Counted from the stretch's first letter, positions 25,985-63,482 are shown. The stretch: DNA of 64,000 nt from Bacteroidota bacterium (GCA_016706255.1 JADJJZ010000029.1:554675-618674); one strand, 5' to 3'. Numbers and translations: made by a program. Notes: generated by a model from the letters alone, not told the origin.

Positions 25985-25995
25985 CGAAATGCAAG

Positions 25996-27289: not shown

Positions 27290-27316
27290 GTGGGTAATAG
27301 TGGTTGATTAAAAGAA

Positions 27317-27348: not shown

Positions 27349-27370
27349 TTGTGCCGGTTAAGCAGCAAAA

Positions 27371-28285: not shown

Positions 28286-28376
28286 ACTCTTGTTTTTATT
28301 AGTTATTTAATGAATTTGACTATTTTGAAAGGTAAATATATAGTAATTCTGCGAATTATTAAATTATTGTGAAGTA

Positions 28377-28976: not shown

Positions 28977-29108
28977 TTCAATTATGCGCCCAAAGATTAT
29001 TAAAAAAATGCAATTATTTGCTCAACTTATGAACGCAATTCAAATTGTGGTGTTCATATGCTACCAATCACAAACGGTATATTAATTTTACATCAAATTT
29101 ATTTAAAC

Positions 29109-29579
29109 ATGAAACTTGACATTGGCCAGCAGGCACCTGATTTTTTAATGTATGATACTGATAAACAGGCAGTACGCCTGAGTGAACAAAACGGTAAAAA
29201 TGTGTTATTGTTATTTTTTCCATTTGCTTTTACATCAACCTGCACTGCTGAATTATGTGCAACCAGAGATGATATTGCGTTTTATCAAAATGTAAATGCA
29301 GAAGTATATGGTATTAGTGTTGATGCACCATACTCGTTAAAAGTATTTAAAGAAGAACAAAAATTAAATTTCCCTTTATTAAGCGATTTTAATAAAACGG
29401 TTTCTGAAACCTATGGTTGTATTTATGACCGTTGGGGAATGGAATTAAAAGGTGTATCAAAACGCAGCGCTTTTGTAATTGATAAAGATGGTATTATTCG
29501 TTATGCAGAAATTTTAGAAAATGCAGGCGCAATTCCCGATTTTGATGCCATTAAAAAAGTTTTGGAAACTTTAAATTAA
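29109..29579 (+). CDS. peroxiredoxin (AhpC/TSA / redoxin family)
   Basis: Start at MKLDIGQQAPDF. FFPFAFTSTCTAELC peroxidatic-Cys context. Confidence 0.8.
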   Translation: MKLDIGQQAPDFLMYDTDKQAVRLSEQNGKNVLLLFFPFAFTSTCTAELCATRDDIAFYQNVNAEVYGISVDAPYSLKVFKEEQKLNFPLLSDFNKTVSETYGCIYDRWGMELKGVSKRSAFVIDKDGIIRYAEILENAGAIPDFDAIKKVLETLN

Positions 29580-29588
29580 TTTCTGCCG

Positions 29589-29993
29589 ATGTTTAATGTA
29601 CGTGTGTATGGCTTATTAATACATAATAATGCCATTTTAGTAGTGCAGGAGCCTGTAAAAAATAATCGTATTATTAAATTTCCGGGAGGCGGATTAGAAT
29701 TTGGTGAAGGCACAGTAGACGGGCTGAAACGCGAGTTTAAGGAGGAATTACAGGCTACAATTTTTAATGTGCGGCATTTTTATACCACCGATTTTTTTGT
29801 GCAGAGTTTCATTAATCCTGAACATCAGGTAATCAGTATTTATTATCTGGTGGATGCTGCAATTGAAGAACTCAATTTTAATAATGATGAAGGATTAGTT
29901 TTTCAATGGATTCCGATGCACGATTTACATACTGAATTATTTCCTTTGCCCATTGATAAACATGTGGTGCAATTATTAAAAGGCAACGCTTAA
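29589..29993 (+). CDS. NUDIX hydrolase
   Basis: Nudix box GGGLEFGEGTVDGLKREFKEELQ. Confidence 0.8.
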   Translation: MFNVRVYGLLIHNNAILVVQEPVKNNRIIKFPGGGLEFGEGTVDGLKREFKEELQATIFNVRHFYTTDFFVQSFINPEHQVISIYYLVDAAIEELNFNNDEGLVFQWIPMHDLHTELFPLPIDKHVVQLLKGNA

Positions 29994-30000
29994 AAAAATA

Positions 30001-31638
30001 TTACGCTGCTTTTTTCACACGTTTTAAATCCAGCATATTTAATGGATTGGGATCCATACCGCTGACATCTTTTTGCACAAAACGATATACTTCATCATAA
30101 AATAACGGAATTACCGGTGCATCCTGCATCATTAAACTATCCATGGTGTAGTATAAATTTTTTCGGATGGTTTCATCACTTTCGGCAACGGCAACCATAT
30201 ATAAACTATCAAATACGGGATTATGGTAACGGGTATAATTTGGTGGTGCTTCACTCCCGCCGTAAAATACGGTTAGATAATTTTCTGCATCGGCATAATC
30301 GGCAATCCAACTGCTACGAAACATTACAGTTGTTGCATTTAATCGCATCTCCCGCAATAAACGTGAATCTACCGTTTCAATTTTTACGGCAATACCGATA
30401 TCTTCTAATTTATCTTTAATATAAACTGCGATATCCTGATATTGTTCTACGGTATGAAAAGTAATTTCGGGTAAACCCACACCATTCTCAAAGCCGGCAG
30501 CAGCAAGCAATTGCAGGGCAGTATCCGGATTATATACATAACCATAAGGTTGCACCGAATCAGCGCGTTGTGGTAATAAACTGGGTGGAATAATACCTCC
30601 CGTTGCCGCAATACCACGATTATTTTTTAAAAATAATAACATTTCATTTTTATCGAAACCGTAATTAATTGCTTTGCGTACTTCAACAAATGAGAGCGGA
30701 CTTTCTTTTACAATTTGTAGTGAAGTATCCATTAAAATAGCAATGTATTCAACATTTAAATAAGGGCCTTTCAGCAATTTTATTTTATCGCTATATTTTG
30801 GTTGCAGATTGCCATCTTTAGTTAGAATATTATCTTTTAGCGCTGCATCAATATCACTCACAAAATCTAATTCTCCACTTAAAAATTTTAAAAATTCTGT
30901 TGATTTATTCGTATTAAACTGAATATTTACAGCATCGAGATATGGTAGTTGAACACCTTGTGCATCTTTTTCAAAATAGTGTTCGAATTTATGTAAAATG
31001 AGCAGTTCACCTTCCTCCCATTGCACAAATTTAAACGGGCCTGTTCCAACAGGATGACTTCTGAAATCTTTACCGTATTTTTCAATGGCTTCTTTAGGAA
31101 CGATGGAACAATATTGAATACTCAATCGCTGTAAAAATGGTGCAAATGGTTCTTGTAATTTAACTTCTACCGTACTATCGTTTAGTGCATAAAATGCATT
31201 TACACTATCCACAATATGCTGAAAAACCCAATTACCACGGGCAGCAGTTGCAGGGTCGATTAATCGGTAAAAAGAATACACAACATCATCAGCAATTAAT
31301 TTTCGTCCTTTCCCGTTTGGAAAACACGCATCATCGTGAAAATACACATCGTTGCGCAAATGAAAAGTATATGTTTTTCTGTCGTCGGAAATTTCCCATT
31401 TTTCAGCAATGCAGGGCACCACATTGAGGCCGGAATCCAATTGCACCAAGCCATTGAACAATTGATTTACACTCCAGGTATTGGACTGGTCGCTTGCAAA
31501 AGCCGGGTCGAGCGAGGTTAAGGGGATAGATAAATTTAAACGGAAAATGGATTTATCATTATTTGGTTTTTCCTTATTACAGGAAACAAATAACAGGATA
31601 ATAAGCAGTGCAGCTACAGAAAAATGTTTCAATTGCAT
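30001..31638 (-). CDS. ABC transporter substrate-binding protein (family 5, peptide/nickel type), probable lipoprotein
   Basis: Start at MQLKHFSVAALLIILLFVSC (lipobox-like). Family-5 SBP length and motifs. The listed ORF extends to 31689. Confidence 0.7.
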   Translation of the reverse strand: MQLKHFSVAALLIILLFVSCNKEKPNNDKSIFRLNLSIPLTSLDPAFASDQSNTWSVNQLFNGLVQLDSGLNVVPCIAEKWEISDDRKTYTFHLRNDVYFHDDACFPNGKGRKLIADDVVYSFYRLIDPATAARGNWVFQHIVDSVNAFYALNDSTVEVKLQEPFAPFLQRLSIQYCSIVPKEAIEKYGKDFRSHPVGTGPFKFVQWEEGELLILHKFEHYFEKDAQGVQLPYLDAVNIQFNTNKSTEFLKFLSGELDFVSDIDAALKDNILTKDGNLQPKYSDKIKLLKGPYLNVEYIAILMDTSLQIVKESPLSFVEVRKAINYGFDKNEMLLFLKNNRGIAATGGIIPPSLLPQRADSVQPYGYVYNPDTALQLLAAAGFENGVGLPEITFHTVEQYQDIAVYIKDKLEDIGIAVKIETVDSRLLREMRLNATTVMFRSSWIADYADAENYLTVFYGGSEAPPNYTRYHNPVFDSLYMVAVAESDETIRKNLYYTMDSLMMQDAPVIPLFYDEVYRFVQKDVSGMDPNPLNMLDLKRVKKAA

Positions 31639-31746
31639 CAGCACAAAACTAAGAAATTTGTTCGCGCTTTTAAGCAGGGATATGCACATGTTGTAGGATA
31701 TCTTTTAATTTAAAATACAGCATAAAACCGGGCAATATTAAAAATG

Positions 31747-31782
31747 AAATGGCATTCTATCCTTTCGGATACAATGCCATTT
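31747..31782 (-). terminator. long hairpin, probable terminator of the OmpA/TSP3 gene
   Basis: AAATGGCATTCTATCC-TTTC-GGATACAATGCCATTT, with a T-rich stretch following on the minus strand. Confidence 0.5.
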
Positions 31783-31801
31783 ATGAAAATCAATATGTAT
31801 A

Positions 31802-32929
31802 TTATCTGAGTATCAATTCCAGTTCCACTCTTCTGTTTTGTGAACGGCCAACTTCGGTATCGTTTGTTGAAATTGGTTTTGTTTCACCATAACCGGTTGC
31901 AGTAAGTCGTCCGGTTGAAACACCTTTGCTTAATAAATACGCTTTAACGGCATCAACTCTTTCTTGCGATAAAGTCATGTTCATATCATCGCCACCAACA
32001 TTATCGGTATGACCTGATATAACAAGATTGTAATCAGTATATTCGTTTAATATGCTCACCACTTCATCCAATAAAGGATTAGATGTTGCTTTTAATGTTG
32101 CTTTTCCTGATTCAAACTGAATACCGCGAGCAGCAAAGTTTAATCGTTTTTTCACATCTTCTTTAATAACGGGACAACCATTTGGGCTACCTTCACCTTT
32201 TGTAGTTGGACATTTATCGTTAGTATCAATAATACCATCACCATCTGTATCGGCAGGGCAACCTTTCATATCAACTTTAACTCCTTTAGGTGTATCGGGA
32301 CATTTATCATCAGAATCAATAATACCATCATTATCGGCATCAGAACTACAACCGGTTGCGTCAACTTTTATACCTTTTTCTGTATTTGGACATTTATCAT
32401 TTGCATCATCAACACCATCATTATCGGTATCGGGACAACCCTTAAACATATCTAAACCTTTCATGTTCGGACATTTATCCATGGCATCCTGAATACCATC
32501 ACCATCGCTGTCGGGGCAACCCTGAAACCTTGCTAAACCGGGCACTTCGGGGCATGCGTCATCTTTATCGGCAATATCATCTTTATCCTGATCGGGGCAA
32601 CCATTTAATTTTGCCAAACCCGGAACCATTGCACATTTATCTAAGTAATCGGCAATTTTATCGTTGTCGGCATCAACCGGACAACCATGTTCATCAACAA
32701 TAACACCTTCAGGTGTATCGGGACAATCATCGCGTTTATCTTTTACACCATCACCATCGGCGTCTTTGCTTAATTCATATATATCAGTTCCGGCATCTGC
32801 AATAAATAATTCATAATTGCCGCTCACAATTATATCATTTACCAGTGCACCATTTACCTGATTAAAAGCAGTTGCGGGCAACAATAAAGTCGCCACACCC
32901 ATTATTATTTTGGATATTTCAAATTTCAT
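31802..32929 (-). CDS. OmpA-family protein with thrombospondin type-3 (calcium-binding) repeats
   Basis: Repeated DxDxDGxxDxxDxCP motifs (DTDGDGIIDTNDKCP and others). C-terminal OmpA domain (IQFESGKATL...GHTDNVGG...NRRVELELI). The listed ORF extends to 32968. Confidence 0.85.
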   Translation of the reverse strand: MKFEISKIIMGVATLLLPATAFNQVNGALVNDIIVSGNYELFIADAGTDIYELSKDADGDGVKDKRDDCPDTPEGVIVDEHGCPVDADNDKIADYLDKCAMVPGLAKLNGCPDQDKDDIADKDDACPEVPGLARFQGCPDSDGDGIQDAMDKCPNMKGLDMFKGCPDTDNDGVDDANDKCPNTEKGIKVDATGCSSDADNDGIIDSDDKCPDTPKGVKVDMKGCPADTDGDGIIDTNDKCPTTKGEGSPNGCPVIKEDVKKRLNFAARGIQFESGKATLKATSNPLLDEVVSILNEYTDYNLVISGHTDNVGGDDMNMTLSQERVDAVKAYLLSKGVSTGRLTATGYGETKPISTNDTEVGRSQNRRVELELILR

Positions 32930-33272
32930 AAAATAGAATTTAATAATTAAAACATTTTCACCTTCCAAAGATGACCATTATTCAATACGAGGTGTTACAC
33001 AAATATTTTTTTGTTTTGTATAATTCACTGATGTGATAAAGTAATATGGTGTGTTGGTAGGGTTTGCAAGAGTCAAAGACCGGAGTGTTCGAGTGGGCTC
33101 TTGGCTCAATATTAAATTATTATTCCGGCATAACCTTGCGATAAATTGGAAGAAGAAATGAACATGTTTACATCAAATTTTCTTGCCTTAGCGGGTTGAA
33201 GGGTTTTATGTTTTTTTGGGGTGCATTAAACTCCTCGGACTAAATTATAATAAAATTTATCCTACCCAATCG

Positions 33273-43463: not shown

Positions 43464-43557
43464 GTTGGGAAAATACCCCAATTGTGAATACCAAGCCCTG
43501 TGTGAACGGCGTCTCGCCTGTCATTAGTTTTTATTAAATTTTATCACAAGTATTTAC

Positions 43558-43565
43558 TACCTTAG
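43558..43565 (+). promoter_or_regulatory. conserved TAYCTTAG box upstream of paralog E
   Basis: TACCTTAG lies 19 nt before the ATG at 43585. Confidence 0.3.
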
Positions 43566-43584
43566 TAGTCCCGACGAAAAATAC

Positions 43585-45908
43585 ATGAAATCACTAATTT
43601 TTATCTACATGTTTATTTTTATAGTGCAAGCAAGATTTGCTCAAGCACCGGATATTATTTGGCAAAAATCTTTTGGTGGAAGTGATTACGACCAACCTGC
43701 TAAAATTATAACTGCTCCAGATTCTAGTTTTTTATTATTTGGTGACACGCGATCGGTGGATTTTGATATTGAGAATAATCATGGTTCACGAGATATTTGG
43801 TTATTAAACATTGATGTCAGTGGAAATTTACTTTGGGAAAATACTTATGGCGGTTCGAGCATTGATTATGGTAGATCGTTAACGATTGGTAATGATAATC
43901 AAGTATTAATGACAGGTTATACAAATTCGATAGACGGAGATGTCTCTGAATTTTATGGTATTTATGATTATTGGACTGTCGCCTCTGATTTATTGGGTAC
44001 AATTGTGTGGGGAAAAAATTTTGGTGGTAGTGAATACGATGGATCCAGAGGGATAAGTGAACTTTTAGATGGATATTTGATAATAGGTGACTCTAAATCA
44101 TCCGATGGTGATGTATTAGGGTTACATGGAATTACTAATTCAGATTTTTGGGTGATCAAAATATCTAATGAAGGCGACCTTATTTGGCAAAAATGCTATG
44201 GTTCCAATAACACAGAGCAACCAAACTCAATAGTTAAAACATTAGAAAATGAGTATATAATTGCTGGGACCACCTTAGGAGAAGGGGGCGACGTGACAGG
44301 TAATCATGGATCTACTGATATCTGGGTAATAAAAATTGATTCAGTAGGGAATTTAATTTGGCAAAAATGTTATGGTGGATCTGACGTTGATGGTATAAGT
44401 AAGATTTTAAATACACCTGATGGCGGATTTATACTCAGTGGTGAAACATATTCAAATAATGGTGATGTTTCAGGTTTTCATGGTGGAATAAATGATGGAT
44501 GGATAATAAAAATTGACAGCATTGGAAATATAGAATGGCAAAAGTGTTATGGCGGCTCTGGTAGTGATGAAATTTATTCTATTATTTTACTTGATGACGG
44601 TAATTTTTTATTCGGAGGTCGGTCTACTTCTGCAGACGGAGACTTAACTGAAAATAAGGATGGAAATGATTGTTGGTTAGTTAAAATTAACCCAGAAGGC
44701 GATATAATTTGGCAAAAATCGTTTGGAGGATATGATGAAGATGTAATTTATGATATTGTTGAAGCTGAAAATGGGGATATTATTTTTTTAGCCGAAAGTC
44801 TTTCTTCTGATGGTGATTTAACTTTAAATATGGGAAATTGGGATTTTTGGGTTGTGCGATTAGGTTATTGTACAACCAAATATTTTGAGGACACCGATGG
44901 CGATGGTTACGGAGATATTTCTTCAGATACATTATCTTGCGAATTACCCACGGTTATGTTTTAGACTCCACCGATTGCAACGATTTAAATCCCGAAATCC
45001 ATCCAACATTAACAGATATTTGTAATGTGATTGATGATAATTGTAACGGATTAACAGATGAAGATGCAACATTTGTTACCTATTTCGCAGATATTGATGG
45101 TGATACTTTTGGTGATGTATTAAATGATTCAACTGCTTGTAATGAATTAATTGGTTATGTGTTAGATAATACCGATTGCAACGATTTAAATCCCGAAATT
45201 CATCCAACATTAACAGATATTTGTAATGCCATTGATGATAATTGTAACGGATTAACAGATGAAGATGCAACATTTGTTACTTATTTTGCAGATATTGATG
45301 GAGATACTTTTGGTGATATATTAAATGATTCAACTGCATGTAATGAATTAATCGGTTATGTGTTGGATAATACTGATTGCAACGATACCAATAATGCAAT
45401 CTTCCCCGGCGTCACCGAACTCTGCAACTACCTCGATGATGATTGTGACGGAATAACAGATGATAATGTCACCTTCATTCAAAGTTTTATTGATGCCGAC
45501 AACGACAATTTCGGAAACCCTGATTTTGATTCCATCGCATGCGAAATTCCACCCGGCTACGTTTTATCCAACACCGACTGCAATGACACCAATCCCGACA
45601 TCTACCCCGGCGCACCGGAACTCCTCAACGGCCTCGACGACGATTGCGACCAAATTGCTGATGAAGGTTTAGCAATAACAGATATTGTAAAACATACAAT
45701 AAGTATTTTCCCGAATCCGGTAAATGCGATTTTATTTATTCAATCGGATGCGATACATAAAATTACTATTGTAAATCAATTAGGAGAAGAAATATTATAC
45801 ACCAATTTATTTATCGGTATAAATACCATTTCTGTAGCAGATTTTGCGAGTGGTGTGTATTGGGTGAAAGCGGAGGATCTGGAGATGGTGGTTTGGGTGA
45901 AGGAGTGA
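43585..45908 (+). pseudogene. family-1 paralog E (propeller-like repeats, 4 Cys-rich modules, CTD); single 1-nt deletion
   Basis: ORF 43585..44964 ends SCELPTVMF*. ORF 44937..45908 continues the same protein in another frame. Adding one G to the GG at 44952-44953 reads CELPTGYVLDSTDCNDLNPEIHP. Confidence 0.75.
44973..45374 (+). repeat. 2 x 201-bp in-frame tandem duplication inside paralog E (one Cys-rich module plus linker)
   Basis: GATTGCAACGATTTAAATCCCGAAAT... recurs at 44973 and 45174, and the next unit begins at 45375. The translations DCNDLNPEIHPTLTDICN(V/A)IDDNCNGLTDEDATFVTYFADIDGDTFGD(V/I)LNDSTACNELIGYVLDNT are nearly identical. There is a single copy in B (~38208-38408). Confidence 0.85.
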
Positions 45909-46483: not shown

Positions 46484-49060
46484 ATGAGTAACCAAAAACA
46501 CCCCTTTTTGATACTATTGATGACTTTTGTTGTCTTTTGTAATTCTGGATATAGCCAAACACCAGACATGCGAATAGTCTATCTAAGTTCAGAGTCAGGA
46601 GAACCACTTGGCTATAATGGTAACATAGAACTTCTAAATAGTGTTTTTACCCCCAGTGGATGGGAGCATTTATACTATGAATCAATTGATACATCAGGGT
46701 TGTTTTCTAATGAAACTTGTCTTCTGTTTTTGGAGGGTAGCTATTCCACTTTTTCTGATTTGACGGATTTCTATATAGATTATTATTATGAAATCGAGCA
46801 GTATGTTTTTAACGGCGGTCACCTTTTTGTTAATATGTATTCTGCCGGTAATATATTTCTTGGATTTGATAGTATCAATAAAATTGATAATGGATTCGGT
46901 TCGATTTACGGCTATCATGATGATGATTCTTTGAATTCATTATTTTTTGGTCCACTTTATCCAATAACAAATCCCCTTGTTGGTATATACGGTGGATTTG
47001 GTCCACAAGCAGGTTATGGTACATTTTCCGGAGGTGACTATGATGTATATTTGTTTGATTTAACAGAACAATCTTTCGGAGGAGATACCTCTGCATATAG
47101 AGAAATTGCTATTGGGAAAATATTTGGTTCAGGAGAATTAATATTTGCAAATTTGACAATTGGTAATTGGGTGGACTATACTGCCACTTATAAAAATTTG
47201 CGTACAAATATTCTCTGGAAACTTTCACCATGTTTACATGCTGAAAATGACATAGGCGTTCAAGCATTAATAACTCCTGCGAATTCTTGCAATTTAACTG
47301 CTGAAGAATCTTTAAATATTTTGGTTCATAATTTTGGCTTCGCAGACCAAGATACATTTGATCTGAGTTTTCAGATTGATGGCGGTGCAATTATCACGGA
47401 ATCCTTCTCAGAAAATTTATCAGCATATTTATCTGATACAATTTCCTTTGTTGCAACTGCCGATTTTTCTGAATGTGGAGCGCATGAAATAAAAGTATGG
47501 ACTAATTTATTGAGCGATACGATATATCAAAACGATACTTTAATATATACAGTCGCGAATATATGCGCTTCTGAATCTACTATTGGTTTACCTAATGAAA
47601 TTTGCTATTTAAGTGATCTTATCATTGCCAACCCTGAGGTTGGAGGAGGTTATTGGGAAGGGCTTGGAATTATTGATGGAGATTTGGGAGTTTTAGACCC
47701 TGAAATTATAGGTGCAGGAAATGATGCTGTTATTTCTTACACATACCAAACAGCAATAGATTATACTCGCCAAATAATTCCATTTGAACCACCCGCATTT
47801 ACTGACTCAACTATTGTTTCATTAATATTAAATGATGATGTGGATACACTCTTATTACCTTTTGATTTTGTATTCTTTTCTAATTCCTACGATGTTTGTT
47901 ATCCTGCAAGTAATGGATATATTGCATTTGGGGAACCACATGACACTTGGTATATAAGCATCCCAGATGTTGGTGGCATAAACAATTTATTAGCTCTTGC
48001 AGGATATGACCTGAACCCAACAACCGGAGGAAGTATTTACTATTCGATTACCGGGTCGTTCCCTTATCGTCAATTACAATTACGATATTATGATGTACCT
48101 CTTTCAATCTCACCAGATCATTTTATTGATGTAACAACGGTATTATATGAGACCACTAATATTATTGATATATTCGTTGATAAATTGCCAGATGTTGGTG
48201 TATTAGGTTTTGTACAAGGAATCTCAAATATTGACGGAACTCAATATTATTATACAAAAACAACGGGAACTCCAGTTTGGTTTATAGGGGCAAATGATAC
48301 AGCCTTCCGATTTATTCCAACTTTATGCCCTCGTACCATTTTTGATACAATTCATATTGTTGGAAATGATACAGAAGACCTTTTAGGCCCGGATACTTTA
48401 TTTTGTTTCGGAGATAGCGTTGAACTACTGTCAAATACCAGTAGTAGTTATTATTTATGGAATACAGGGGATACAACACAATCAATTTTCGTTGACGAGA
48501 CAGGATTATATACCATTGAATTAGAATACATTTTGGGATGCAATATTATAGATACAATTAATGTTATAGAGCTAGACAGCATTATTTTAAATATTTCTTC
48601 GACACCTACAGATACAGACGTAAATACAGGTACCGCAACTGTAGAGGTGATTTCAGGTGGAGTAGCTCCATATACATATCTTTGGGACACAGGTGAAATA
48701 GCTTCAACAATTGAAAATCTTACCGCAGGTATCTATGTGGTCGAGGTTACAGACTCCTTCGGGTGCAAAACCACTGCATCTGTTGCAGTTGATAAAAATG
48801 TTTCGATTGGAGATTTTGAGACCTATAATTTATTAACTATTTTCCCTAACCCATCGACTAATTCATTTAGTGTTAAATTAAATTCAAACGTATATGAAGC
48901 AAATTGTGAATTGACTAATCTTGATGGAAAAGCAATTTTTAAAAGTAAAATTAATTCAGCTAACTTTGAAATAAACACCTCGCAATTTGTTAGAGGAGTT
49001 TATTTTTTAATAATTAGAACAAACTCAGGAAACTACTTTTCAAAAGTAGTGCTGCAATAA
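46484..49060 (+). CDS. large T9SS-secreted protein with an SprB-type repeat, unrelated to family 1
   Basis: 858 aa with a signal peptide. SprB-repeat-like segment (TATVEVISGGVAPYTYLWDTGEIASTIENLTAGIYVVEVTDSFGCKTTASVAV). CTD (LLTIFPNPSTNSFSVKLN...GVYFLIIRTNSGNYFSKVVLQ). Confidence 0.75.
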   Translation: MSNQKHPFLILLMTFVVFCNSGYSQTPDMRIVYLSSESGEPLGYNGNIELLNSVFTPSGWEHLYYESIDTSGLFSNETCLLFLEGSYSTFSDLTDFYIDYYYEIEQYVFNGGHLFVNMYSAGNIFLGFDSINKIDNGFGSIYGYHDDDSLNSLFFGPLYPITNPLVGIYGGFGPQAGYGTFSGGDYDVYLFDLTEQSFGGDTSAYREIAIGKIFGSGELIFANLTIGNWVDYTATYKNLRTNILWKLSPCLHAENDIGVQALITPANSCNLTAEESLNILVHNFGFADQDTFDLSFQIDGGAIITESFSENLSAYLSDTISFVATADFSECGAHEIKVWTNLLSDTIYQNDTLIYTVANICASESTIGLPNEICYLSDLIIANPEVGGGYWEGLGIIDGDLGVLDPEIIGAGNDAVISYTYQTAIDYTRQIIPFEPPAFTDSTIVSLILNDDVDTLLLPFDFVFFSNSYDVCYPASNGYIAFGEPHDTWYISIPDVGGINNLLALAGYDLNPTTGGSIYYSITGSFPYRQLQLRYYDVPLSISPDHFIDVTTVLYETTNIIDIFVDKLPDVGVLGFVQGISNIDGTQYYYTKTTGTPVWFIGANDTAFRFIPTLCPRTIFDTIHIVGNDTEDLLGPDTLFCFGDSVELLSNTSSSYYLWNTGDTTQSIFVDETGLYTIELEYILGCNIIDTINVIELDSIILNISSTPTDTDVNTGTATVEVISGGVAPYTYLWDTGEIASTIENLTAGIYVVEVTDSFGCKTTASVAVDKNVSIGDFETYNLLTIFPNPSTNSFSVKLNSNVYEANCELTNLDGKAIFKSKINSANFEINTSQFVRGVYFLIIRTNSGNYFSKVVLQ

Positions 49061-49669: not shown

Positions 49670-49685
49670 CTTTAATATTATCTCC

Positions 49686-51618
49686 ATGAAGATTATAGTA
49701 TTCATCTTGGTGTTTACACTTAGCTTTAGTGCGGATGCTCAGGTGCCTGAAATCGAGTGGCAGCGGAACTATGGCGGTTCTGGTTGGGACATTCCTTTTA
49801 AAATTTTATTTACTCCATCAGATAGTGGTTATATAGTTGCAGGCGTTTCAGGGTCTGATGATGGTGATCTTACAGAAAGCAATGGCTATGATGATTATTG
49901 GGTGGTTAAACTGGATAGCGTAGGAAACATTTTGTGGCAAAACACTTATGGAGGCTCAAGTTTTGATCAATGCAATGATATAGTGTTAACATCGGACGGA
50001 GGTTATTTATTGGCCGGATATATTTATTCAAATGATGGCGATATTACATTAAATCATGGAGACGTAGATTATTGGGTGGTTAAAATCAGTGTAACAGGTG
50101 TAATCGAGTGGCAAAAATCATTTGGTGGTGTTGAAACCGATTTTGCGAACCATATACTTACATTACCATCTGGTAATTTTATGATTATTGGCGGGTCAAG
50201 TTCTAACGACGGGGATGTTTTAGAACACCACAATACTCCTACGCTGACAAACGATATTTGGGTAATTGAAATTGACCCTATTGGCAATTTACTTTCGAGT
50301 AAATGTTATGGTTCCTATTTTGATGAAAGAGCCGGGGATTTAATTTTATTAGATGATGGCATTGCGATAGTAGGAACCACATTTGGTTCAGGTGGTGATG
50401 TTACCTCTCATGATGGTGCCACAGATTTTTGGTTATTTAAAATTGACTTCGATGGCAATATAATCTGGGATCGTTCATTTGGGAGGAGATGATTATGATT
50501 GGGGATATTCAATAGGTAAAAAAACAAACGGAGATTTAGTTATTTGTGGTATTACTTCTTCAGTCGATGGTGATATTATTGATTATAATGGAGGGACAGC
50601 TGATGCTTTGGTAGTTATAGTAGATAGTATAGGTAATTTAGAAAGTTCGCATTGTTTCGGTGGTAGTTTGTATGATGAAAGCGATGATCTAATTGTAATT
50701 GATAATAATCAAATTCTAATATGTGGTTCAACAGCCTCAATTGATGGTGATATGACAGAAAATAATGGGAGTAATGATTTTTGGATAGCCATGATTGATA
50801 CAATAGGAAATGTTCATTGGCAAAAATCACTCGGCGGTTCAATAGATGAAGCAGCTTATGCAATTGCTACAACTCCAGATGAAAATTCGTATATAACCGC
50901 AGGGCGTAGTCACTCATCTGATGTTGACGTCGAAGCAAACTTTGGGAGTTATGATTTTTGGGTAGTAAAATTAAATATTTGTGAAACGCTGTATTTTTTG
51001 GATGCAGACGGTGATGGATTTGGTGATATTACTAATGATTCAAGTGCATGTGATATACCTTTGGGATATGTTATTGATTCAACCGATTGTAATGATTCAT
51101 TAAATTTTATAAATCCTTCAGTAAAAGAAATTTGCAATTACATTGATGATAATTGCAATGGTGAAATTGATGAAGGTCTAACATTAATACTTACATTTGA
51201 AGATTTAGACAGTGATAGTTATGGCAATGAATTAATTGATTCTATCGCATGCGAAATTCCACCCGGTTACGTTTTATCCAACACCGACTGCAACGACACC
51301 AATCCCGACATCTACCCCGGCGCCCCCGAACTCCTCAACGGCCTCGACGACGATTGCGACCAAATAGCTGATGAAGGTTTACCTACAACAGATATTGTAA
51401 AAAATACAATAAGTATTTTCCCGAATCCGGTAAATAATATATTATTTATTCAATCAGATGCAACACAACAAATAACAATTGTAAATCAATTAGGAGAAGA
51501 AATATTACACACAAATTTATTTATTGGATTAAATACCATTTCGGTAGCAGATTTTGCGAGTGGTGTGTATTGGGTGAAAGTGGAAAATGGGGAGATGGTG
51601 GTTTGGGTGAAGGAGTGA
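49686..51618 (+). pseudogene. family-1 paralog G (A-like ends, diverged core); single 1-nt insertion
   Basis: ORF 49605..50492 ends WDRSFGRR*. ORF 50479..51618 continues as GGDDYDWGYSIGKK. The run at 50481-50483 is GGG, and GG would read SFGGDDYDWG, matching the family repeat. The real start is probably MKIIVFILVF at 49686. Confidence 0.75.
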
Positions 51619-55953: not shown

Positions 55954-56841
55954 TTAATGTATATTTATTTCTTTGGTGTAAATACTTGTTTGATTCATAA
56001 GAACGACAACGTAAATTCCGGGTGGGATTGTTTCCATATCAATCAAAGTAAATTTTTCTTTCAAATCCGTTTCCAAAAGTTTTTGTCCTTGTAGATTATT
56101 AATTGCAAGCGAACATCCAGCGTAATTCTCAGTTTTAACATATAGTCTGTTATTAAAAGTATATACTAACGCATCGAGGACTTTTTTTTCATTTATTGGA
56201 ACTGTGGTATCACCAATCATATCACCGGCAATGATACCCATGTCACACTTATTTTCATAAGCGTAATCCTTAATTGTTAATTTCTCACCATTTTCATTTA
56301 TTGTACATCTTATCCAGCCATAATGTGTACACTCTAAACTATCTTTAAATTTAATGCCTACAAATTTGTCAACTGCTTCAGGGTACCAGTCGCCTCCTTC
56401 AAATAAATAATATATTGACCATTCAGGTATCAATTTATAGGCCATTTTTGCATCATAATGATTAAAAAGCAATTCATCATTAATGATTGTTCCAACATCT
56501 AAAGCTGCAACAAGGTAAGTGTTTGTCGAGAATAAATATGTAGAAAAAACAGCCTTATTCTCAAATCCAGTTAAATCTATTTCGCTCCTGTAAACATCAC
56601 AACCGCACCAATCAGTATAAATTGTATTCGCGAATTTTTGAAATGTAAAATCATTTACACCGTCATTATCAATATCTAGTAGGAAGGCTTCGCTAGGGGC
56701 TATTGAAAGTATTGTATCGGGATCAATATCTACATAAACTGCTTGAGCACCAGTTTCCCAAGGAATACCAAGAAAACTACCAGCTAAAGCCGCATAACCT
56801 GCGAGGTTAAATGCTTTTGAATTTATTTGTCTGTTTTTCAA
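55954..56841 (-). CDS. family-2 T9SS cargo paralog J (DIDPD / HYGWIRC family)
   Basis: 295 aa. AVYVDIDPDTIL, DIDNDGVNDFTF, HYGWIRC, LTIKDYAYEN, and CTD-like end (GIYVVVLMNQTSIYTKEINIH). Confidence 0.7.
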   Translation of the reverse strand: MKNRQINSKAFNLAGYAALAGSFLGIPWETGAQAVYVDIDPDTILSIAPSEAFLLDIDNDGVNDFTFQKFANTIYTDWCGCDVYRSEIDLTGFENKAVFSTYLFSTNTYLVAALDVGTIINDELLFNHYDAKMAYKLIPEWSIYYLFEGGDWYPEAVDKFVGIKFKDSLECTHYGWIRCTINENGEKLTIKDYAYENKCDMGIIAGDMIGDTTVPINEKKVLDALVYTFNNRLYVKTENYAGCSLAINNLQGQKLLETDLKEKFTLIDMETIPPGIYVVVLMNQTSIYTKEINIH

Positions 56842-57020
56842 TTTGTTTTAATGTTTGGACTTACTTACCAAAAATTCAAGAAAGTCTAATTAGGATAGTT
56901 TAAAAATAGGGTTTTATTCGGGTTTACAATATGCTAATTTGTAGGGTATAAAAATTCTGCTTCGGCTGGAATTTATTTAATGTTTAATCACCGAATTTAA
57001 TTGGATTTATCACCCAATCG

Positions 57021-57079
57021 CAATTTGCCTGTGGCTGCAGGGACGCATGCAATTCGTCCCTACATCCACTGGCCATTTG
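57021..57079. repeat. type-A long hairpin element
   Basis: CAATTTGCCTGTGGCTGCAGGGACG / CGTCCCTACATCCACTGGCCATTTG. Confidence 0.8.
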
Positions 57080-57145
57080 CTCAATTAGGTTTAAAAGCAC
57101 AATTTGAAAAAGGTCATTTTACAAATTAATATTTCACTCAAAATT

Positions 57146-57206
57146 GTCATGCATGTTATTTTGTAGGCACGTATTGCATGCGTCCTTACAAAATAATGTG
57201 CAGGAC
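57146..57206. repeat. type-B long hairpin element
   Basis: GTCATGCATGTTATTTTGTAGGCACGTATTGCATGCGTCCTTACAAAATAATGTGCAGGAC. Confidence 0.8.
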
Positions 57207-57339
57207 GTTTACGAAGCTGAGCATGCCAATGTTTAAAAAAACCAACCAGGTCCGAGCAAGGTTCATCCAGCCAAAAAAAATTATTTTCCCGGCACAATTT
57301 TGTGATTATAACATTTTATCCTAATTATTTGAAGATTTA

Positions 57340-58233
57340 TTATTTGTCCAATAACAATGTTTTAGCGAAATATTCTATTCCACATCGCACTTCAACTAAA
57401 TAAATGCCGGTGGTTAAAGAAGTTAATATTGAGTTTCTAGATTCATGTAAATTTTTCTGATAAACACAACGTCCGCTCATATCATAAATGTTTAAAGTAA
57501 AATCTAATTCCGGTCTGCTTGATATGTTTACATAAATAACGTTTCCGTAAGCGTAAATATTTCCAGCTAGAATATTTGAATTAATATTTTGATAAGTTTC
57601 TTTGCTACCTGTTAAAATTGGTTGATTTGTCTCAGATTCATAAGCAAAATCTTTTATTATTAACGCATGACCATCATCCTTTACATCACATCTTATCCAA
57701 CCATAATGAATATTATTATCGCTATCCACAAACTTTGCTCCTAAGTAATGGTCTAATAGCTCTGGTAAGCTTTCGGAATTCCAATAACATAGGTCACAAT
57801 GGTCGTCATAACCACCAGCCCAAGTTTTCCATGCAATGAATTGAATTCCAAAATTTTGCCAGTTAAGTAAAGGTTCAATTAGATTACTTTCAGAGAATGC
57901 ATATGGGAAATATCGATTCCCACCACTATAAAAATAATAATGGGAGATACCAGCAAGAGCATTTGATGATATGAATGGACCTGCTAGCAATGACTGAAAG
58001 GTAACATAACCTAATGTAAAGTCATAGGTTGTAGCAGAGTTATTTAAAAACCCAAAATCAAACGTACCATTATTATCAATGTCTATCGCAAAAAAATCTT
58101 CTGTTTCATTTAATATAGTATCTGGGTCAATATCTGTATAAATTACTTCTCCATTGGTAGTATTAAATATCATGAAATTTGCGCAAGCAAATACTGAATA
58201 TGCTTTCAATTTAATTTTAGATTCTTTTTTCAT
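57340..58233 (-). CDS. family-2 paralog K
   Basis: 297 aa. VIYTDIDPDTIL, DIDNNGTFDFGF, HYGWIRCDVKDDGHALIIKDFAYE, and CTD-like end (GIYLVEVRCGIEYFAKTLLLDK). Confidence 0.7.
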   Translation of the reverse strand: MKKESKIKLKAYSVFACANFMIFNTTNGEVIYTDIDPDTILNETEDFFAIDIDNNGTFDFGFLNNSATTYDFTLGYVTFQSLLAGPFISSNALAGISHYYFYSGGNRYFPYAFSESNLIEPLLNWQNFGIQFIAWKTWAGGYDDHCDLCYWNSESLPELLDHYLGAKFVDSDNNIHYGWIRCDVKDDGHALIIKDFAYESETNQPILTGSKETYQNINSNILAGNIYAYGNVIYVNISSRPELDFTLNIYDMSGRCVYQKNLHESRNSILTSLTTGIYLVEVRCGIEYFAKTLLLDK

Positions 58234-58474
58234 TCTATATATCTTTCATTTGTGCCTAATGAAATTTTCTTCAAAAGATTTTACAAATTAAATCCTACAA
58301 TGTCCTGCCGGAAGAGGTTTATAAGTGGTCATCCTGACATAGATTGTCTAAGTTAAACCAAACAAGATACAAATTAAACCAAAAAAAAATACAAACATCA
58401 GTCCAAGATTGGTGCTTACTTCGCCCAATTTCCCCCATTTTCACTAAATTTACCCTACCATTCATGAAATTACA

Positions 58475-59359
58475 ATGCGTTTAAAAGCTTTACACAATAA
58501 ACTCGCAGATTATTCTCTCCTATCCGGAGCATTTATTTTGATGTATCAAGGTGCTGCAGGACAGGTGGTTTATACGGATATTGATCCGACATTGAAATTG
58601 AATTTGATGGACAAAGAAGTGCATATTTTGATATTGATAATAATGGGCAATTGATTTTGCATTTTAAATTCCTCATGGTCTTATGATTTTAGAATGTATA
58701 GTTTTATTCAGCAAGATTACGCCGTAAAATCTGGGCAGGTCCACTTGAAACAATCAGATAGCCGGTAATTCTTTTCACGATGCGGGATTTGGCGGGTTGA
58801 TATCATCCTTATGCTCTTAATAATGATGCATTAATTACAGAAGACTTAGAGTTTTCAAAATTGGAGACTTCAAACAATGGCAGGCGCTCACATAAAACTT
58901 AGAAACATTTGATGATTGGTTTTAATGGGGCATTGGATATTTGATGAGAATACAATTTTTAGGCTTAAATTTATTGGTCGGACGAGTATATACATTATGG
59001 CTGGATGCGATGTGGCGTAATAGATACAGCAGAATTTTAATTATATTTGATTATGCGTATGAATCTAAATGTGAAACTGGCATTCTTGCCGGTGATACAA
59101 TCGGAGACACAAGTGGAGTTTCAATTTCAGAATTAAATATATTTAAAATTTACAGTTTCAACAATAATATTTATGTCAATATTCCCAATTATCAAAACAC
59201 ACAAATAACTGTTTACGATATTACCGGTAATAAAATTTATAATAAATCCTTGAAGGAAATTCTTCAGTAATCAACATGGAAAGTTTCGCTGCCGGAATTT
59301 ATGTTGTGTCGGTTAAACTAGGGGAAAATGTGGTTACGAAAAAAGTGAATGTGGAGTGA
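58475..59359 (+). pseudogene. family-2 paralog L, heavily degraded (multiple frameshifts)
   Basis: The ATG at 58475 gives MRLKALHNKLADYSLLSGAFILMYQGAAGQVVYTDIDP, after which the frame is lost repeatedly. ORF 58941..59270 retains YAYESKCETGILAGDTIGDT. The CTD end FAAGIYVVSVKLGENVVTKKVNVE* is in yet another frame, with its stop at 59357-59359. Confidence 0.7.
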
Positions 59360-59421
59360 ACCTTATCAAAAAAATCTTATTAAATAATTATTAAACAATA
59401 CAGTTCCAATTTTTAAATAAA

Positions 59422-60334
59422 ATGAAAAAACCATTAGACCAAATATTAAGCAATTATAGTCGAATGGCAGGTATTTTTATTTTATTAAATAACAAGGCTA
59501 GTGCAACCGTTGTGGTAACAGATATTGACCCTGACACTACCATTAATTTGGATGGAGAATTCTATCTTCTTGATATGGATAATAACGCTGTCAGTGATTT
59601 TATAATTTTTAAAGATTCAGGATACTATTATTATGAGGGTTATTCCTCTACAACTCTTCGATTTAGGCAATTAGTTGCAATGGGGCCTCAATACACACTT
59701 TGAATAAAATTTTAGGAGCACATTATTATAATTCATGGACTGGTGCTGATTTTTATTTCCCCATACCACTTATTCAAGGTGAAGAAATTGGATTTAGTCA
59801 AACTTTTTACAATTTTCCTGTACAGATTATATGTGCCGGTCACCTTGAAAACATTGGTTCAGTTTCAGGGTTTCATTTAGGACCCGGTTATTGGTTGGCT
59901 CCTGGTAACCACGGTGTTGAAAATCGATACTTAGGAGTTTCCTTTGTTGATGAAGATGAAAACAGATATTACGGCTGGGTTCGATGTTCCACAGCAGACT
60001 CGATGAAGGCGATTACTATTCATGAATATGCTTTTGAAAATGAACCTAATAAACCTATTATAGCTGGCGATACAATTAGTTATGTAGATATTAATACCCT
60101 ACCAAATACCGAAGCTATCAGCATTTATAGTTTTGAAAATCAAATTCATATTCAATTGATGAATAATCAAGATGCAACGGTAAATATTTACGATATTAAG
60201 GTAATAAAATATTTTTCGAACAAATTAACAGAAATTCTGAAATAATCAATATGGAAAATTTTGCTGCTGGAATTTATGTGGTGTCGGTTAAACTAGGGGA
60301 AAATGTGGTTACGAAAAAAGTGATTGTGGAATGA
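59422..60334 (+). pseudogene. family-2 paralog M, two frameshifts
   Basis: ORFs 59422..59703 and 59700..60245 plus the tail to 60334 are colinear with intact paralog N. There is a break near 59698-59701. ATTAAGGT (~60196) contrasts with ATTAAAGGT in N. The 3' ~400 bp are nearly identical to N. Confidence 0.75.
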
Positions 60335-60403
60335 AATTGTGAAAATAAAATTATCATAATTGAAAATAAGATGTTAAATTAAAATTTAATAAAACGAAAT
60401 CAT

Positions 60404-61318
60404 TTGAAACATCATGTTAGTCAGATATTGAACAGATACAGTCGGATGGCCGGTATTTTCTTATTATTACATAAAGAAGCGTCTTCTACTGTTGTGGTTA
60501 CTGATGTGGATCCGGATACAGTAATTAATTTGGATGGTGAATTCTACTTACTGGATATGGATAATAATTTGATTAATGATTTTATTATATTTAAGGACTC
60601 CGGTGTATATTACTATGAAGATTATTCTTCAACTAGCGTTAGATTTCGTGAATTTATTGGCGCAGGGCCTCAGGCGACCATTCAAAATAAGTTACTTGGT
60701 GGTCATTATTATAACTCTTGGAATGGTGCGGAATATTATCAACCATATGATTTATCTGCAGGTGAGTTAATTAGCCCTGAAGGGCAATTTTATAATGCAG
60801 AAGTTCAAGTAATTTGTGCAGGACATTTTATAAATTTTTACAGTGCACCCGCATTTGACTTTGGGCCCGGATATTGGAAGGATTTTGATTTTGAAGGCGT
60901 GGATGACAGATACTTAGGTGTATCATTTGTTGATGAAGATAACAATAGATATTACGGCTGGGTTCGATGTTCCACAGCGGACTCAATGAAGGCGATTACA
61001 ATTCATGAATATGCTTTTGAAAATGAACCTAATAAACCTATTTTAGCTGGCGATACAATTAGTTATGTAGATATTAATACCCTACCAAATACCGAAGCTA
61101 TCAGCATTTATAGTTTTGAAAATCAAATTCATATTCAATTGATGAATAATCAAGATGCAACGGTAAATATTTACGATATTAAAGGTAATAAAATATTTTT
61201 CGAACAAATTAACAGAAATTCTGAAATAATCAATATGGATAATTTTGCTGCAGGAATTTATGTGGTATCGGTTAAACAAGGGGAAAATGTGGTTACGAAA
61301 AAAGTGATTGTGGAGTGA
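60404..61318 (+). CDS. family-2 paralog N (intact; TTG start)
   Basis: 304 aa. VVVTDVDPDTVINLDGEFYLLDMDNNLINDF, YYGWVRCSTADSMKAITIHEYAFENEPNKPI, and CTD end FAAGIYVVSVKQGENVVTKKVIVE. The start codon is TTG, where M has ATG. Confidence 0.7.
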   Translation: MKHHVSQILNRYSRMAGIFLLLHKEASSTVVVTDVDPDTVINLDGEFYLLDMDNNLINDFIIFKDSGVYYYEDYSSTSVRFREFIGAGPQATIQNKLLGGHYYNSWNGAEYYQPYDLSAGELISPEGQFYNAEVQVICAGHFINFYSAPAFDFGPGYWKDFDFEGVDDRYLGVSFVDEDNNRYYGWVRCSTADSMKAITIHEYAFENEPNKPILAGDTISYVDINTLPNTEAISIYSFENQIHIQLMNNQDATVNIYDIKGNKIFFEQINRNSEIINMDNFAAGIYVVSVKQGENVVTKKVIVE

Positions 61319-61407
61319 AATTAAGTGAAATAATAATACCTTCAACAAAAGAACAAACAGACAACTAACCCTTGAATCACAAAAAAAACATATTATGGTA
61401 TTCTGCA

Positions 61408-61521
61408 ATGGCTGTATCGTATTTGTTGGTGCATAGTGACGTGAAAGCAGATGCAATATATGTTGATATTGAACCGGATATTACGTTGGATAATGGCGGA
61501 GAATCTACTGTAATATGTTAG
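61408..61521 (+). pseudogene. family-2 N-terminal fragment
   Basis: A 37-codon ORF, MAVSYLLVHSDVKADAIYVDIEPDITLDNGGESTVIC*, retains the AxYVDI(D/E)PD motif and then stops. Confidence 0.5.
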
Positions 61522-61563
61522 ATAATACTTCTTATGTTAATAAGTTTTAAATTCAACAATAGA

Positions 61564-63027
61564 ATGATAAAAAAGTTTGTTTCAATATATATAGCAACGC
61601 TTTTGAGCTGCAGTGCTTTTACCCAATCTTACGATAACAACTGGGTATTTGGAGATAGCGCTGGTTTAAATTTTTCAGGCGGTGAGCCGAGTTTTTTTTA
61701 TACAGGTATTAATTCACATGAATCATGTGCCTCAATCTCAGATAGTAATGGTAATTTATTATTCTATACAAATGGAGAGAAAATATGGAATAGAAATAAT
61801 GCTGTTATGCCCAATGGTGATAGCATTCACATCGGATTATTAGTGCCAGGCTATTACCCTTCAAGCATAACTCAAGGGGTTCTTATTTTACCTATTCCTG
61901 AAAGCGATAGTGAATATTATCTTTTTCAAATTCAGGGAGATAGTGAAAATCAAGGAATTGAATATTCAATCGTGGATATGGAATTAGATGGAGGATTAGG
62001 GGATGTAACGCATAAGAATCTAGATCTAAACACAGATACTATTTGTGAAAAAATGCAAGCTGTGAAACATGCAAACGGTCGCGATTGGTGGTTACTCACT
62101 TGTAAAAGTGCTAATGATTCTACGATTAGTTTTATAAAATACCTTATAACACCAAATGCAATCATTGGACCTTATTTACAAAGTTTTACTGATCTCACAA
62201 ATTTAGGCACTAATAGTTCTTTTTCAGCTGGACAAATGAAGTTCTCAAGAAATGGCGCTTTGTTGGCATTCACTCGATCTTACTATATTGAAATTTGGGA
62301 TTTTGATAGGTGCACCGGCGAATTATCAAGTCAACAAACTATTCACAATAATGTGGGTTCTTACGGTTGTGAATTTTCATCTGATAGTCGACGATTATTT
62401 ATTACCAAGACTTCTACAACATCCTATAATGGGTGGCTATATCAATACTGTCTCGATTGCGCTTTACCGATTGAAGAAACTGAAGTAATTATTTATGAAT
62501 GCGAATATGACTACTATTCGCTTGGATCACTTCAAATTGGGCCCGATGACAAAATTTATGCATCCATCGCTCATTTAAATTATAAAGACCATGTCTACTC
62601 AGTTGTGAATAATAATTTATGTATAATAAATAATCCGAATGAAGGAGGTTTAGCCTGTGACTTTGATACGCTTGTAATTTCTTTAGAGGATACTAGAGTT
62701 ACATTTGGTTTACCCAACATGCCCAATTACAAGCTCGGCGCATTAGAAGGCAGTCCTTGTGATACATTATTGTCAATCACCAACTCTAATTCGATTAATA
62801 TTGGAATACAAATTTATCCAAATCCAACAAGTGAAACAATAAAAATTGTATTGTCGCAAGCTGTTAAAATAATTTCAATAAAAACTTTTAATTATCTTGG
62901 TGAAGAGATAGCAATTTCATTTGATGAAAATTTAAATGCCCTAGTAAAAAATATTGCTAATGGTTTTTACATCACTGAAATATTAACAGAGAAGGGCAAG
63001 TTGAGCTTAAGTTGGGAAAAATTGTAA
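61564..63027 (+). CDS. hypothetical T9SS C-terminal-domain secreted protein
   Basis: Start at MIKKFVSIYIATLLSCSAFTQ. The motif NNWVFGDSAGLNFSGGEP is, from my recollection, common in Bacteroidetes secreted proteins. CTD (IQIYPNPTSETIKIVL...GFYITEILTEKGKLSLSWEKL). Confidence 0.65.
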   Translation: MIKKFVSIYIATLLSCSAFTQSYDNNWVFGDSAGLNFSGGEPSFFYTGINSHESCASISDSNGNLLFYTNGEKIWNRNNAVMPNGDSIHIGLLVPGYYPSSITQGVLILPIPESDSEYYLFQIQGDSENQGIEYSIVDMELDGGLGDVTHKNLDLNTDTICEKMQAVKHANGRDWWLLTCKSANDSTISFIKYLITPNAIIGPYLQSFTDLTNLGTNSSFSAGQMKFSRNGALLAFTRSYYIEIWDFDRCTGELSSQQTIHNNVGSYGCEFSSDSRRLFITKTSTTSYNGWLYQYCLDCALPIEETEVIIYECEYDYYSLGSLQIGPDDKIYASIAHLNYKDHVYSVVNNNLCIINNPNEGGLACDFDTLVISLEDTRVTFGLPNMPNYKLGALEGSPCDTLLSITNSNSINIGIQIYPNPTSETIKIVLSQAVKIISIKTFNYLGEEIAISFDENLNALVKNIANGFYITEILTEKGKLSLSWEKL

Positions 63028-63052
63028 CTTAAAAAAAATCAACTTAAACAAA

Positions 63053-63208
63053 ATGAAACAATTTTTAAGTTACTCAAAAATGATGTTTAACAATCAAATT
63101 ATTTTGCCGCAAATAAATAGCGGAGTATATCAAATAGTAATTAAGAACGAGGATGCAATTATTAAATCGGAGAAATTTGTTATTGTGCATTCAGGTAGCC
63201 TATATTAA
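63053..63208 (+). pseudogene. orphan mini-ORF resembling only the last strands of a T9SS CTD
   Basis: MKQFLSYSKMMFNNQIILPQINSGVYQIVIKNEDAIIKSEKFVIVHSGSLY*. The pattern GVYxxxIxxxxxxxxxKFVI is the CTD terminus, with no passenger domain. Confidence 0.4.
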
Positions 63209-63482
63209 ATTCTACTATAATTTCTTTATATAGCTAAACAAAAAAAACTGCCTAGGGGTTCAGTGATCTTTAAGTGATTCAAACCTATCTGCTACACGGT
63301 ATGCAGTGCCATACCTTCCCGTCGATAGCGGGATGCGCTATTCAACTATTTCTCCTTACTATTTTAACATAAAAAAACAGATGTAACATTCACTCACCAA
63401 TTTCTTTCAAATAAATTGTGTATTATTTTAGAAAACAGACTTCGTCTAATCTCCTCAAATAACTACAATTTTACAAGCCTTT

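Follow-up and report, generated by a model that had tools for sequence, protein, structure and literature searches.

Type A cargo of type IX secretion systems (T9SS), such as NucA and RemA of Flavobacterium johnsoniae and mirolase of Tannerella forsythia, is built to a common plan in which a Sec signal is followed by a passenger and then by a C-terminal sorting domain (CTD) of ~75 aa. Two other described systems are relevant here: the choice-of-anchor domains of NCBIfam, which are domains found with alternative sorting signals, and paralogous surface arrays shaped by gene conversion, as exemplified by the Neisseria opa/pilS genes and the Anaplasma msp2 cassettes. We analyzed a stretch of 64,000 nt of DNA from a Bacteroidota bacterium (GCA_016706255.1, JADJJZ010000029.1:554675-618674; hereafter, the window), in which positions 55954-61521 probably hold a paralog array: five genes, plus a stub, from a large surface-protein family of Bacteroidota that has not been named. 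The array proteins share the architecture of known T9SS type A cargo, but differ from it in that their passenger is of no described family, in their very small size (~300 aa) and in their occurrence in arrays with CTD swapping.

The five genes (J, K, L, M and N) and the stub are laid out as follows. Window coordinates are used throughout; labels such as L001 denote loci, and labels such as P0002 denote proteins, of related assemblies.

55954-56841, minus strand: J, intact, 295 aa, TTG start, with a signal peptide, a beta domain and a type A CTD
56842-57339: J-K spacer, with an inverted pair of a palindrome resembling a miniature inverted-repeat transposable element (MITE), at 57041-57059 (plus) and 57167-57185 (minus)
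57340-58233, minus strand: K, intact, 297 aa, matching the family hidden Markov model (HMM) with E = 5.6e-61
58234-58474: K-L divergent spacer, 241 bp, from which K (minus) and L (plus) diverge
58475-59359, plus strand: L, a disrupted copy whose ortholog in other assemblies is an intact 301-aa gene
59422-60334, plus strand: M, with two 1-nt deletions relative to its intact ortholog, at 59697 (AA run) and 60198 (AAA run)
59926-60334, plus strand: the M side of a 3' tract homogenized between M and N, comprising the end of the beta domain, the linker and the CTD
60404-61318, plus strand: N, intact, 304 aa, TTG start, identical to NCBI MBK7443842.1; its parts are the signal peptide (aa 1-28, 60404-60487), the beta domain (~aa 29-216, 60488-61051) and the CTD (~aa 240-303, 61121-61312)
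61372-61521, plus strand: the stub, the 5' end of a sixth member, a 49-codon open reading frame (ORF) from a TTG, with a signal peptide followed by AIYVDIEPD

Matches to the family are confined to 55954-61521, based on tblastn with J, K and N across the window, and the family HMM agrees; the remaining tblastn matches in the window are weak and restricted to the CTD end of the query. J, K and N are 29-31% identical to each other over their full length. J matches the family HMM with E = 1.7e-55, and a protein with the same sequence is found on 15 contigs. The ORF table and tblastn reproduce the gene models of an initial annotation, made from the sequence alone, with respect to the ORFs and their coordinates, the divergence of K and L from 58234-58474, and the intact state of J, K and N, the last with its TTG start. 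The frameshifts reported in M and the heavy degradation reported for L are likewise present in this assembly. The two lesions in M could be placed, relative to the intact ortholog, at the positions listed above, and the gene is matched by tblastn in pieces at 59422-59700, 59703-60239 and 60200-60331. L is matched in four pieces lying in three frames (58499-58696 in frame 2, 58978-59034 in frame 1, 59019-59258 in frame 3 and 59258-59356 in frame 2). The same annotation grouped the genes by shared N-terminal motifs and a T9SS CTD; this grouping is a true paralog family, and the motifs occur family-wide in 190-248 homologs.

The stub had been described as an N-terminal fragment of 37 codons; the fragment is present, but its ORF runs for 49 codons from the TTG at 61372, the shorter figure being a count from an internal ATG at 61408. 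By tblastn, the stub matches family residues ~3-46, its match to the family HMM has an E-value of 1.7e-4, and it includes the conserved YS motif of the family signal peptide. The ORF of the stub ends 13 nt ahead of an unrelated 497-aa T9SS gene at 61534. Because the stub is also found in L001 and L037, this remnant 5' region may now be the upstream region of the 497-aa gene. A scan of the whole window against Rfam gave zero matches.

The N-terminal segment of these proteins had been called atypical and signal-like. Instead, we find an ordinary Sec signal peptide, recognized by inspection of 190 non-redundant homologs from its basic n-region, its hydrophobic core of ~11 residues and its AxA↓Q site; the consensus is MKK..L..YS..AAAFLLL...AxA↓QV(V/I)YTDIDPD. 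Cleavage at AxA↓Q exposes Gln, and thus fits the Bacteroidetes Q-rule, according to which Gln is exposed at the cleavage site (PMC5837995). Inside the signal peptide, an L..YS..A motif is conserved in the family, with Tyr in ~89% of the 190 homologs (allowing a one-residue register shift), and this motif is retained even in lipoprotein versions; such conservation is unusual among signal peptides. In the window, signal peptides with L..YS..A are located as follows.

60404-60487, plus strand: signal peptide of N
58150-58233, minus strand: signal peptide of K
56746-56841, minus strand: signal peptide of J
61372-61455, plus strand: signal peptide of the stub

At the other end of the proteins, all three intact genes score above the curated cut-off of TIGR04183 (23 bits), with 40.6 bits for N, 31.0 for K and 23.7 for J. 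With Pfam PF18962 (cut-off 27 bits), N alone is above the cut-off (39.3 bits, versus 26.4 for K and 19.5 for J), while 51 of 56 family members have a PF18962 match. In a full-length AlphaFold model of N (mean predicted local distance difference test score, pLDDT, 90.6), the CTD is an Ig-like beta-sandwich of ~75 aa, as in T9SS-bound substrates. Compared to structures in the PDB, this CTD matches 8glk_D, the NucA CTD in the translocon (template modelling score, TM, 0.81; root-mean-square deviation 2.0), 8gl6_D (TM 0.79) and the mirolase CTD 8qb1 (TM 0.71); in a Foldseek search with the full-length model, the CTD alone was matched. From what is established of the pathway, the proteins would be exported by Sec and would then cross the outer membrane via the T9SS by means of the type A CTD, and they would probably be left at the cell surface once the CTD is removed.

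The passenger, by contrast with known T9SS cargo, could not be assigned to a described family. Neither in J, K and N nor in 53-56 diverse members do residues ~29-216 match a Pfam or NCBIfam entry, and when E-values were relaxed to 5 (53 members) just two or three weak Pfam echoes of FG-GAP and EF-hand appeared. Searches of the passenger against PDB sequences, with single sequences and by profile, gave no match, the best E-value of the profile searches being 0.27. A literature search with the HYGW[IVA]R motif returned no paper, and a search of the general T9SS-cargo literature likewise returned none that describes this family. Modelled alone from an alignment of 53 sequences, the domain has a pLDDT of 94.2 and a predicted TM score of 0.89; it is all-beta and comprises 11 strands, of which several span 12-13 residues. 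That the initial annotation did not recognize the family is borne out for the ~185-aa domain, which has no Pfam, NCBIfam, PDB-sequence or Foldseek match; neither the profile searches nor structure prediction assigned it to a well-characterized domain. Thus, the ~185-aa domain matches no described family, while T9SS type A cargo is, as a kind of protein, already known.

The family is neither rare nor local. A domain-only profile searched against 1.84 billion cluster representatives matched 3,886 clusters (50% identity) at E ≤1e-3, 988 at ≤1e-10 and 106 at ≤1e-30, and nearly all of the matches are ~290-310 aa long with the same layout. The only names given to members in their source records are ‘T9SS type A sorting domain-containing protein’ or ‘hypothetical’. 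Carriers are mostly Chitinophagales, Saprospirales and unclassified Bacteroidota metagenome-assembled genomes (MAGs), together with a few Flavobacteriales, including the cultured Lacinutrix himadriensis E4-9a (L013). A few larger T9SS relatives have the whole domain at the N-terminus, one of them with three Calx-beta domains and one with a weak fn3 match, and a 2,199-aa M43-peptidase/PKD protein has five matches that are restricted to the C-terminal ~50-residue motif of the domain.

Some members lack the CTD and are instead lipoproteins of ~200-245 aa, with signals such as ...LAISC↓KKE and ...LLVSC↓SKGDD. These forms occur in tandem, as distant members of the family, in Saprospirales MAGs (five at L018, 5530-11759, and three at L020, 1956-3776), and in the cultured Flavobacteriaceae bacterium MAR_2010_188 three of them stand beside one CTD form (L036, 4514-7735). 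To judge from these sequences, the domain is placed at the cell envelope through either of two anchoring routes, and the display of the same domain by lipoprotein signal or by CTD suggests that it works at the surface whatever its anchor. The pattern resembles that of the choice-of-anchor domains, in that one ~185-aa domain is combined with either a T9SS CTD or a lipoprotein signal, both of which are present at L036. It differs in that no named NCBIfam model is matched, and in that the alternative anchor is an N-terminal lipobox, not another C-terminal signal.

At six or more loci, drawn from several genomes (L007, L008, L012, L026-L028, L032-L033 and L034-L035), the stop codon of a T9SS protein of ~860-940 aa lies 0-4 nt ahead of the start of a family member. 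Pairwise identity among these large proteins is 30-35%, and apart from the CTD they match no domain of Pfam or NCBIfam. The ~900-aa protein is likely an operon partner of the family member. The window holds no homolog of this partner; an 858-aa gene in the window (46484-49060) was considered as one and rejected, as it has no similarity to the partner.

Conservation within the domain is uneven. The ends of the domain (the first ~40 and the last ~50 residues) are conserved, and it varies in the middle ~100. The conserved ends contain the motifs YTDIDPD, D-x-[DN]-N-[ND]-G-x-x-D-F, YLGxxF, HYGWIRC and IKDYAYE, and the near-invariant polar residues are D, D, D, W, R, D and E. The second of these motifs is located between strands 2 and 3. 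Dx[DN]xDG is a class of calcium-binding loop motif (PMC3123361). Of 248 members, 176 (71%) have a relaxed form of the loop, D.[DN].[DN]G..[DE], and 73 the strict form, D.[DN].DG; J has DIDNDG and K has DIDNNG. From its sequence, this loop (Dx[DN]x[DN]Gxx[DE]F) probably binds calcium. The loop of the family, D-[IML]-[DN]-N-[ND]-G-x-x-D-F, resembles the Dx[DN]xDG loops of EF-hand and FG-GAP/integrin-type proteins, but the domain around it is not an EF-hand or a beta-propeller blade, and position 5 of its loop is more often N than D.

The conserved frame with its variable middle, the probable structural calcium site, the two routes of display and the occasional fusions to Calx-beta or fn3-like domains together suggest that the passenger domain is a surface binding module, adhesin- or lectin-like, a proposal made from architecture. 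The domain could instead be an enzyme or a ligand scavenger, for instance a hemophore-like or metal-binding protein. The near-invariant polar residues would fit such a function, as would the coupling at 0-4 nt to the ~900-aa T9SS protein in several genomes, which suggests a two-component function, and Foldseek returned very weak echoes of ligand binders of the beta-barrel type (the HmuY analog 6eu8, avidin, Ups1 and LpqN). However, these structural matches fall short of significance (E ≥0.045, TM ~0.2, probability ≤0.2), the acidic residues that are conserved belong to a motif of the calcium-loop type, conservation is lowest in the middle of the domain, where a pocket would be expected, and the large partner is absent from the window. 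We consider an enzyme or scavenger unlikely, and prefer a binding module.

Several results weigh against an array of functional surface-binding proteins and have to be set beside the evidence for it. With the domain model, Foldseek found nothing at E ≤1e-3 in the PDB (best hit 6e5d, E = 0.045, probability 0.16, TM 0.16) or in BFVD (best E = 3.8e-3, TM 0.24); with no structural analog from Foldseek, no functional analogy can be drawn from the fold. No annotated homolog supports a function, the binding module being an architecture-based proposal, and in N the loop is DMDNNL, with Leu in place of Gly. No T9SS machinery gene was identified in the window, and secretion is deduced from the CTD; at least 10 further CTD-bearing ORFs in the window imply a T9SS. 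No Bacteroidetes -7 box (TAnnTTTG) was found upstream of any member, and a scan for sigma-70-type promoters and terminators gave no excess over shuffled sequence. Finally, the pseudogene component of the array may be an assembly artefact.

The initial annotation proposed that the locus is a hotspot for amplification and turnover, and the comparison of related assemblies agrees with this, based on copy numbers of three, four and five, CTD swaps and a 33-58 kb block that is missing in L023. It also described the 3' ~400 nt of M and N as nearly identical; homogenization is real and recurs in two other lineages, but the identity is only ~96-97%. This identity extends over 59926-60334 in M and 60909-61318 in N, up to the stop codons, compared to 50-75% over the 5' ~500 nt. 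Pairs of the M/N type (M and N of the window, P0002 and P0009, P0004 and P0010) are 92-97% identical in the CTD and 53-55% in the middle. The converse is found in whole-CTD swaps: N and P0002, as well as M and P0009, are 99-100% identical in the domain and 23-24% in the CTD.

Copy number varies among assemblies. There are five copies (J, K, L, M and N) in both the window and L002. L001 starts at K, J being out of its range, and has K, L, M, N and the stub; its N is broken just by N-run scaffold gaps. An apparently different CTD in this copy of N was rejected, in that the 51 apparent mismatches to the N of the window are those gaps. L037 has four members, although its alignment past 58588 consists of non-orthologous copies, and we used this locus for copy number and for its lesion in J only. 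In L043, the CTD of L is joined to DNA downstream of N, leaving three members. In L023 (1-18780), from a related species, the sequence is 91% identical to 24499-33171 of the window (24.5-33.2 kb) and also matches 58430-63293; its OmpA gene is followed directly by an L-like and an M-like gene and by a homolog of the 497-aa gene. By this comparison of sequences, the 33-58 kb block of the window (~25 kb, with J, K and a set of repeat-rich genes that have a MopE motif and a CTD, called family 1) is absent from L023 and is therefore lineage-specific.

The array would thus evolve by tandem duplication, by gene conversion or recombination limited to the 3' part of the genes, as seen in M/N homogenization and in the whole-CTD swaps, and by deletion and, possibly, pseudogenization of copies; through duplication, 3' conversion and deletion, strains would come to carry different sets of copies. 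In its diverged tandem copies, conversion tracts, truncated copies and strain differences in content, the array is like Neisseria opa/pilS and Anaplasma msp2. Unlike these systems, it lacks long repeat tracts, a recombinase and the combination of an expression site with silent cassettes, and its conversion homogenizes the constant 3' part, whereas the variable part is not shuffled. It is, then, like conversion-shaped surface clusters without the classical hallmarks of phase or antigenic variation (long repeat tracts, expression site, recombinase).

The graded decay described in the initial annotation corresponds to disruptions that are present in this assembly, but decay as such is not secured. 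At least eight short-read assemblies of the species of the window, from several samples, have an intact 301-aa L (L001, L002 and L038-L043), and two have an intact M (L001 and L002; P0006). None of the short-read assemblies in which the gene is covered (at least eight in the case of L, two in that of M) shows the disruptions of L or M. L002 is 98% identical overall to the window, and short-read contigs are 97-98% identical. Relative to L002, the window has 21 indels in L, 2 in M, 6 in the J-K spacer and 1 in the K-L spacer, and none in a 582-aa gene, J, K or N; K has no indels relative to L001 either. The J-K spacer has 11 mismatches to the sister contigs in addition to its 6 indels, and M, apart from its two deletions, is ~99.9% identical to the intact 304-aa gene P0006. 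In L, BLAST against the intact ortholog (L001 and L002) gives 21 indels and ~50 mismatches, and MAFFT gives 66 substitutions and ~19 indels in ~560 nt, with 24, 23 and 19 substitutions in the three codon positions. Divergence from the intact allele is ~12% in the disrupted part of L (58497-59034), compared to just 0.1-1% in its flanks. This is beyond what neutral decay since the strains split would produce, and points to the import of an old dead allele or to sequence noise. Given the intact L and M elsewhere, the sites of the lesions and the Nanopore MAGs with neighbouring accessions, the lesions are either strain-specific or assembly artefacts.

If they are artefacts, all five genes are intact, and the lesions in L, M and the MITE-bearing spacer are residual errors of a Nanopore metagenome assembly that polishing with short reads left in place, an explanation that we regard as quite possible but would not call probable. 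The intact copies of L and M in independent short-read contigs are what it would predict. Each lesion in M is the loss of a single A from a short run (AA or AAA), and one of the two lies inside the M/N repeat, so that short reads would map ambiguously there. The differences between L and L002 show no codon-position bias, and deletions outnumber insertions; the ~12% difference amid flanks at 0.1-1% is too much for neutral decay.

The origin of the assembly bears on the same question. The window is probably from a Nanopore-based MAG. Its proteins MBK7443835, MBK7443836 and MBK7443842 are on a contig of 1.08 Mb, and in a sister MAG with neighbouring accessions (JADJSJ01, L037) J is broken at a T7/T8 run and the 582-aa gene falls into four pieces. 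In an activated-sludge project, Nanopore reads were assembled with CANU and then treated with Racon, Medaka and one Illumina round of Racon with --include-unpolished (PMC8012365). The ‘MAXAC’ isolate naming and the CANU-style ‘tig’ names on a JADJ-prefixed MAG (L018) match this project, but the membership of the window's own MAG could not be confirmed. Other evidence points toward real mutations: indels relative to L002 are found only in L, M and intergenic DNA, as for mutations filtered by selection; no close paralog exists for the middle of L, and hence polishing would be expected to work there; a difference of ~12% is well above consensus error; and the substitutions in L are, by our own count, A/T-biased, which fits natural mutation. 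Two family-1 genes elsewhere in the window (43543-45905 and 49671-51615) are each split by a single frameshift, in the latter at a G-run near 50480, and raise the same question of real pseudogene versus long-read error.

If the lesions are real, the array might be a contingency locus, in which homopolymer frameshifts and gene conversion switch surface variants under pressure from phage, grazers or competitors. Consistent with this idea, the broken members are not the same from one assembly to another (L and M in the window, J in L037), lesions occur at mononucleotide runs, the array shows conversion tracts and CTD swaps, a variable middle is carried on a conserved frame, and tandem arrays recur in other lineages. 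Nevertheless, with just 2-3 nt in M (J of L037 has 7-8 nt), the runs are too short for slipped-strand phase variation of the classical kind, and no long homopolymer or tandem repeat tract was found at the frameshifts, which lie in AA and AAA in M and as ~20 scattered indels in L. A copy of L with that many indels would be unable to switch back, broken copies are seen only in long-read MAGs, and no invertible promoter or recombinase is nearby. We therefore think a contingency locus quite unlikely.

A broader proposal would treat the domain as a new fold, a calcium-stabilized recognition scaffold with a hypervariable middle, and the arrays as a diversity-generating surface repertoire in Chitinophagales and Saprospirales, with copies frameshifted off, swapped in their CTDs and exchanged among strains in an arms race with phage and grazers in activated sludge. 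We regard this as rather improbable; if it were true, the dead L allele within flanks of 99.8% identity would be a trace of balancing selection or of allele import.

Two further elements of the window lie mainly outside the array. The palindrome of the J-K spacer belongs to an intergenic repeat, GGACGCATGCAAT[TA]CGTCC, which is present in 11 copies in the window, compared to 0.03 expected. The copies span 33293-57185 and often form inverted pairs ~125 bp apart, like a small MITE (for example, 33945/34073, 49263/49391 and, in the J-K spacer, 57041/57167). On the minus strand, 16951-20916 encodes a 1,321-aa T9SS cargo protein with a CotH kinase domain, three lamin-tail domains and chitobiase-C/Fn3-associated modules.

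In environmental Bacteroidota, T9SS cargo makes up a large share of the surface proteome, and much of it lacks annotation. The array overturns nothing that is known of the T9SS and should not surprise the field, and it may show how long-read MAG errors can mimic pseudogene decay. What it adds is the definition of a family of compact domains, abundant at thousands of clusters, confidently modelled and without a detectable structural relative, whose sequence signatures, two anchoring modes and recurrent operon partner are enough to seed an entry in Pfam as a domain of unknown function (DUF) and to make it a useful target for structural and binding work. The locus is also a clean case of modular evolution in T9SS cargo, in which the CTD is exchanged or homogenized independently of the passenger.

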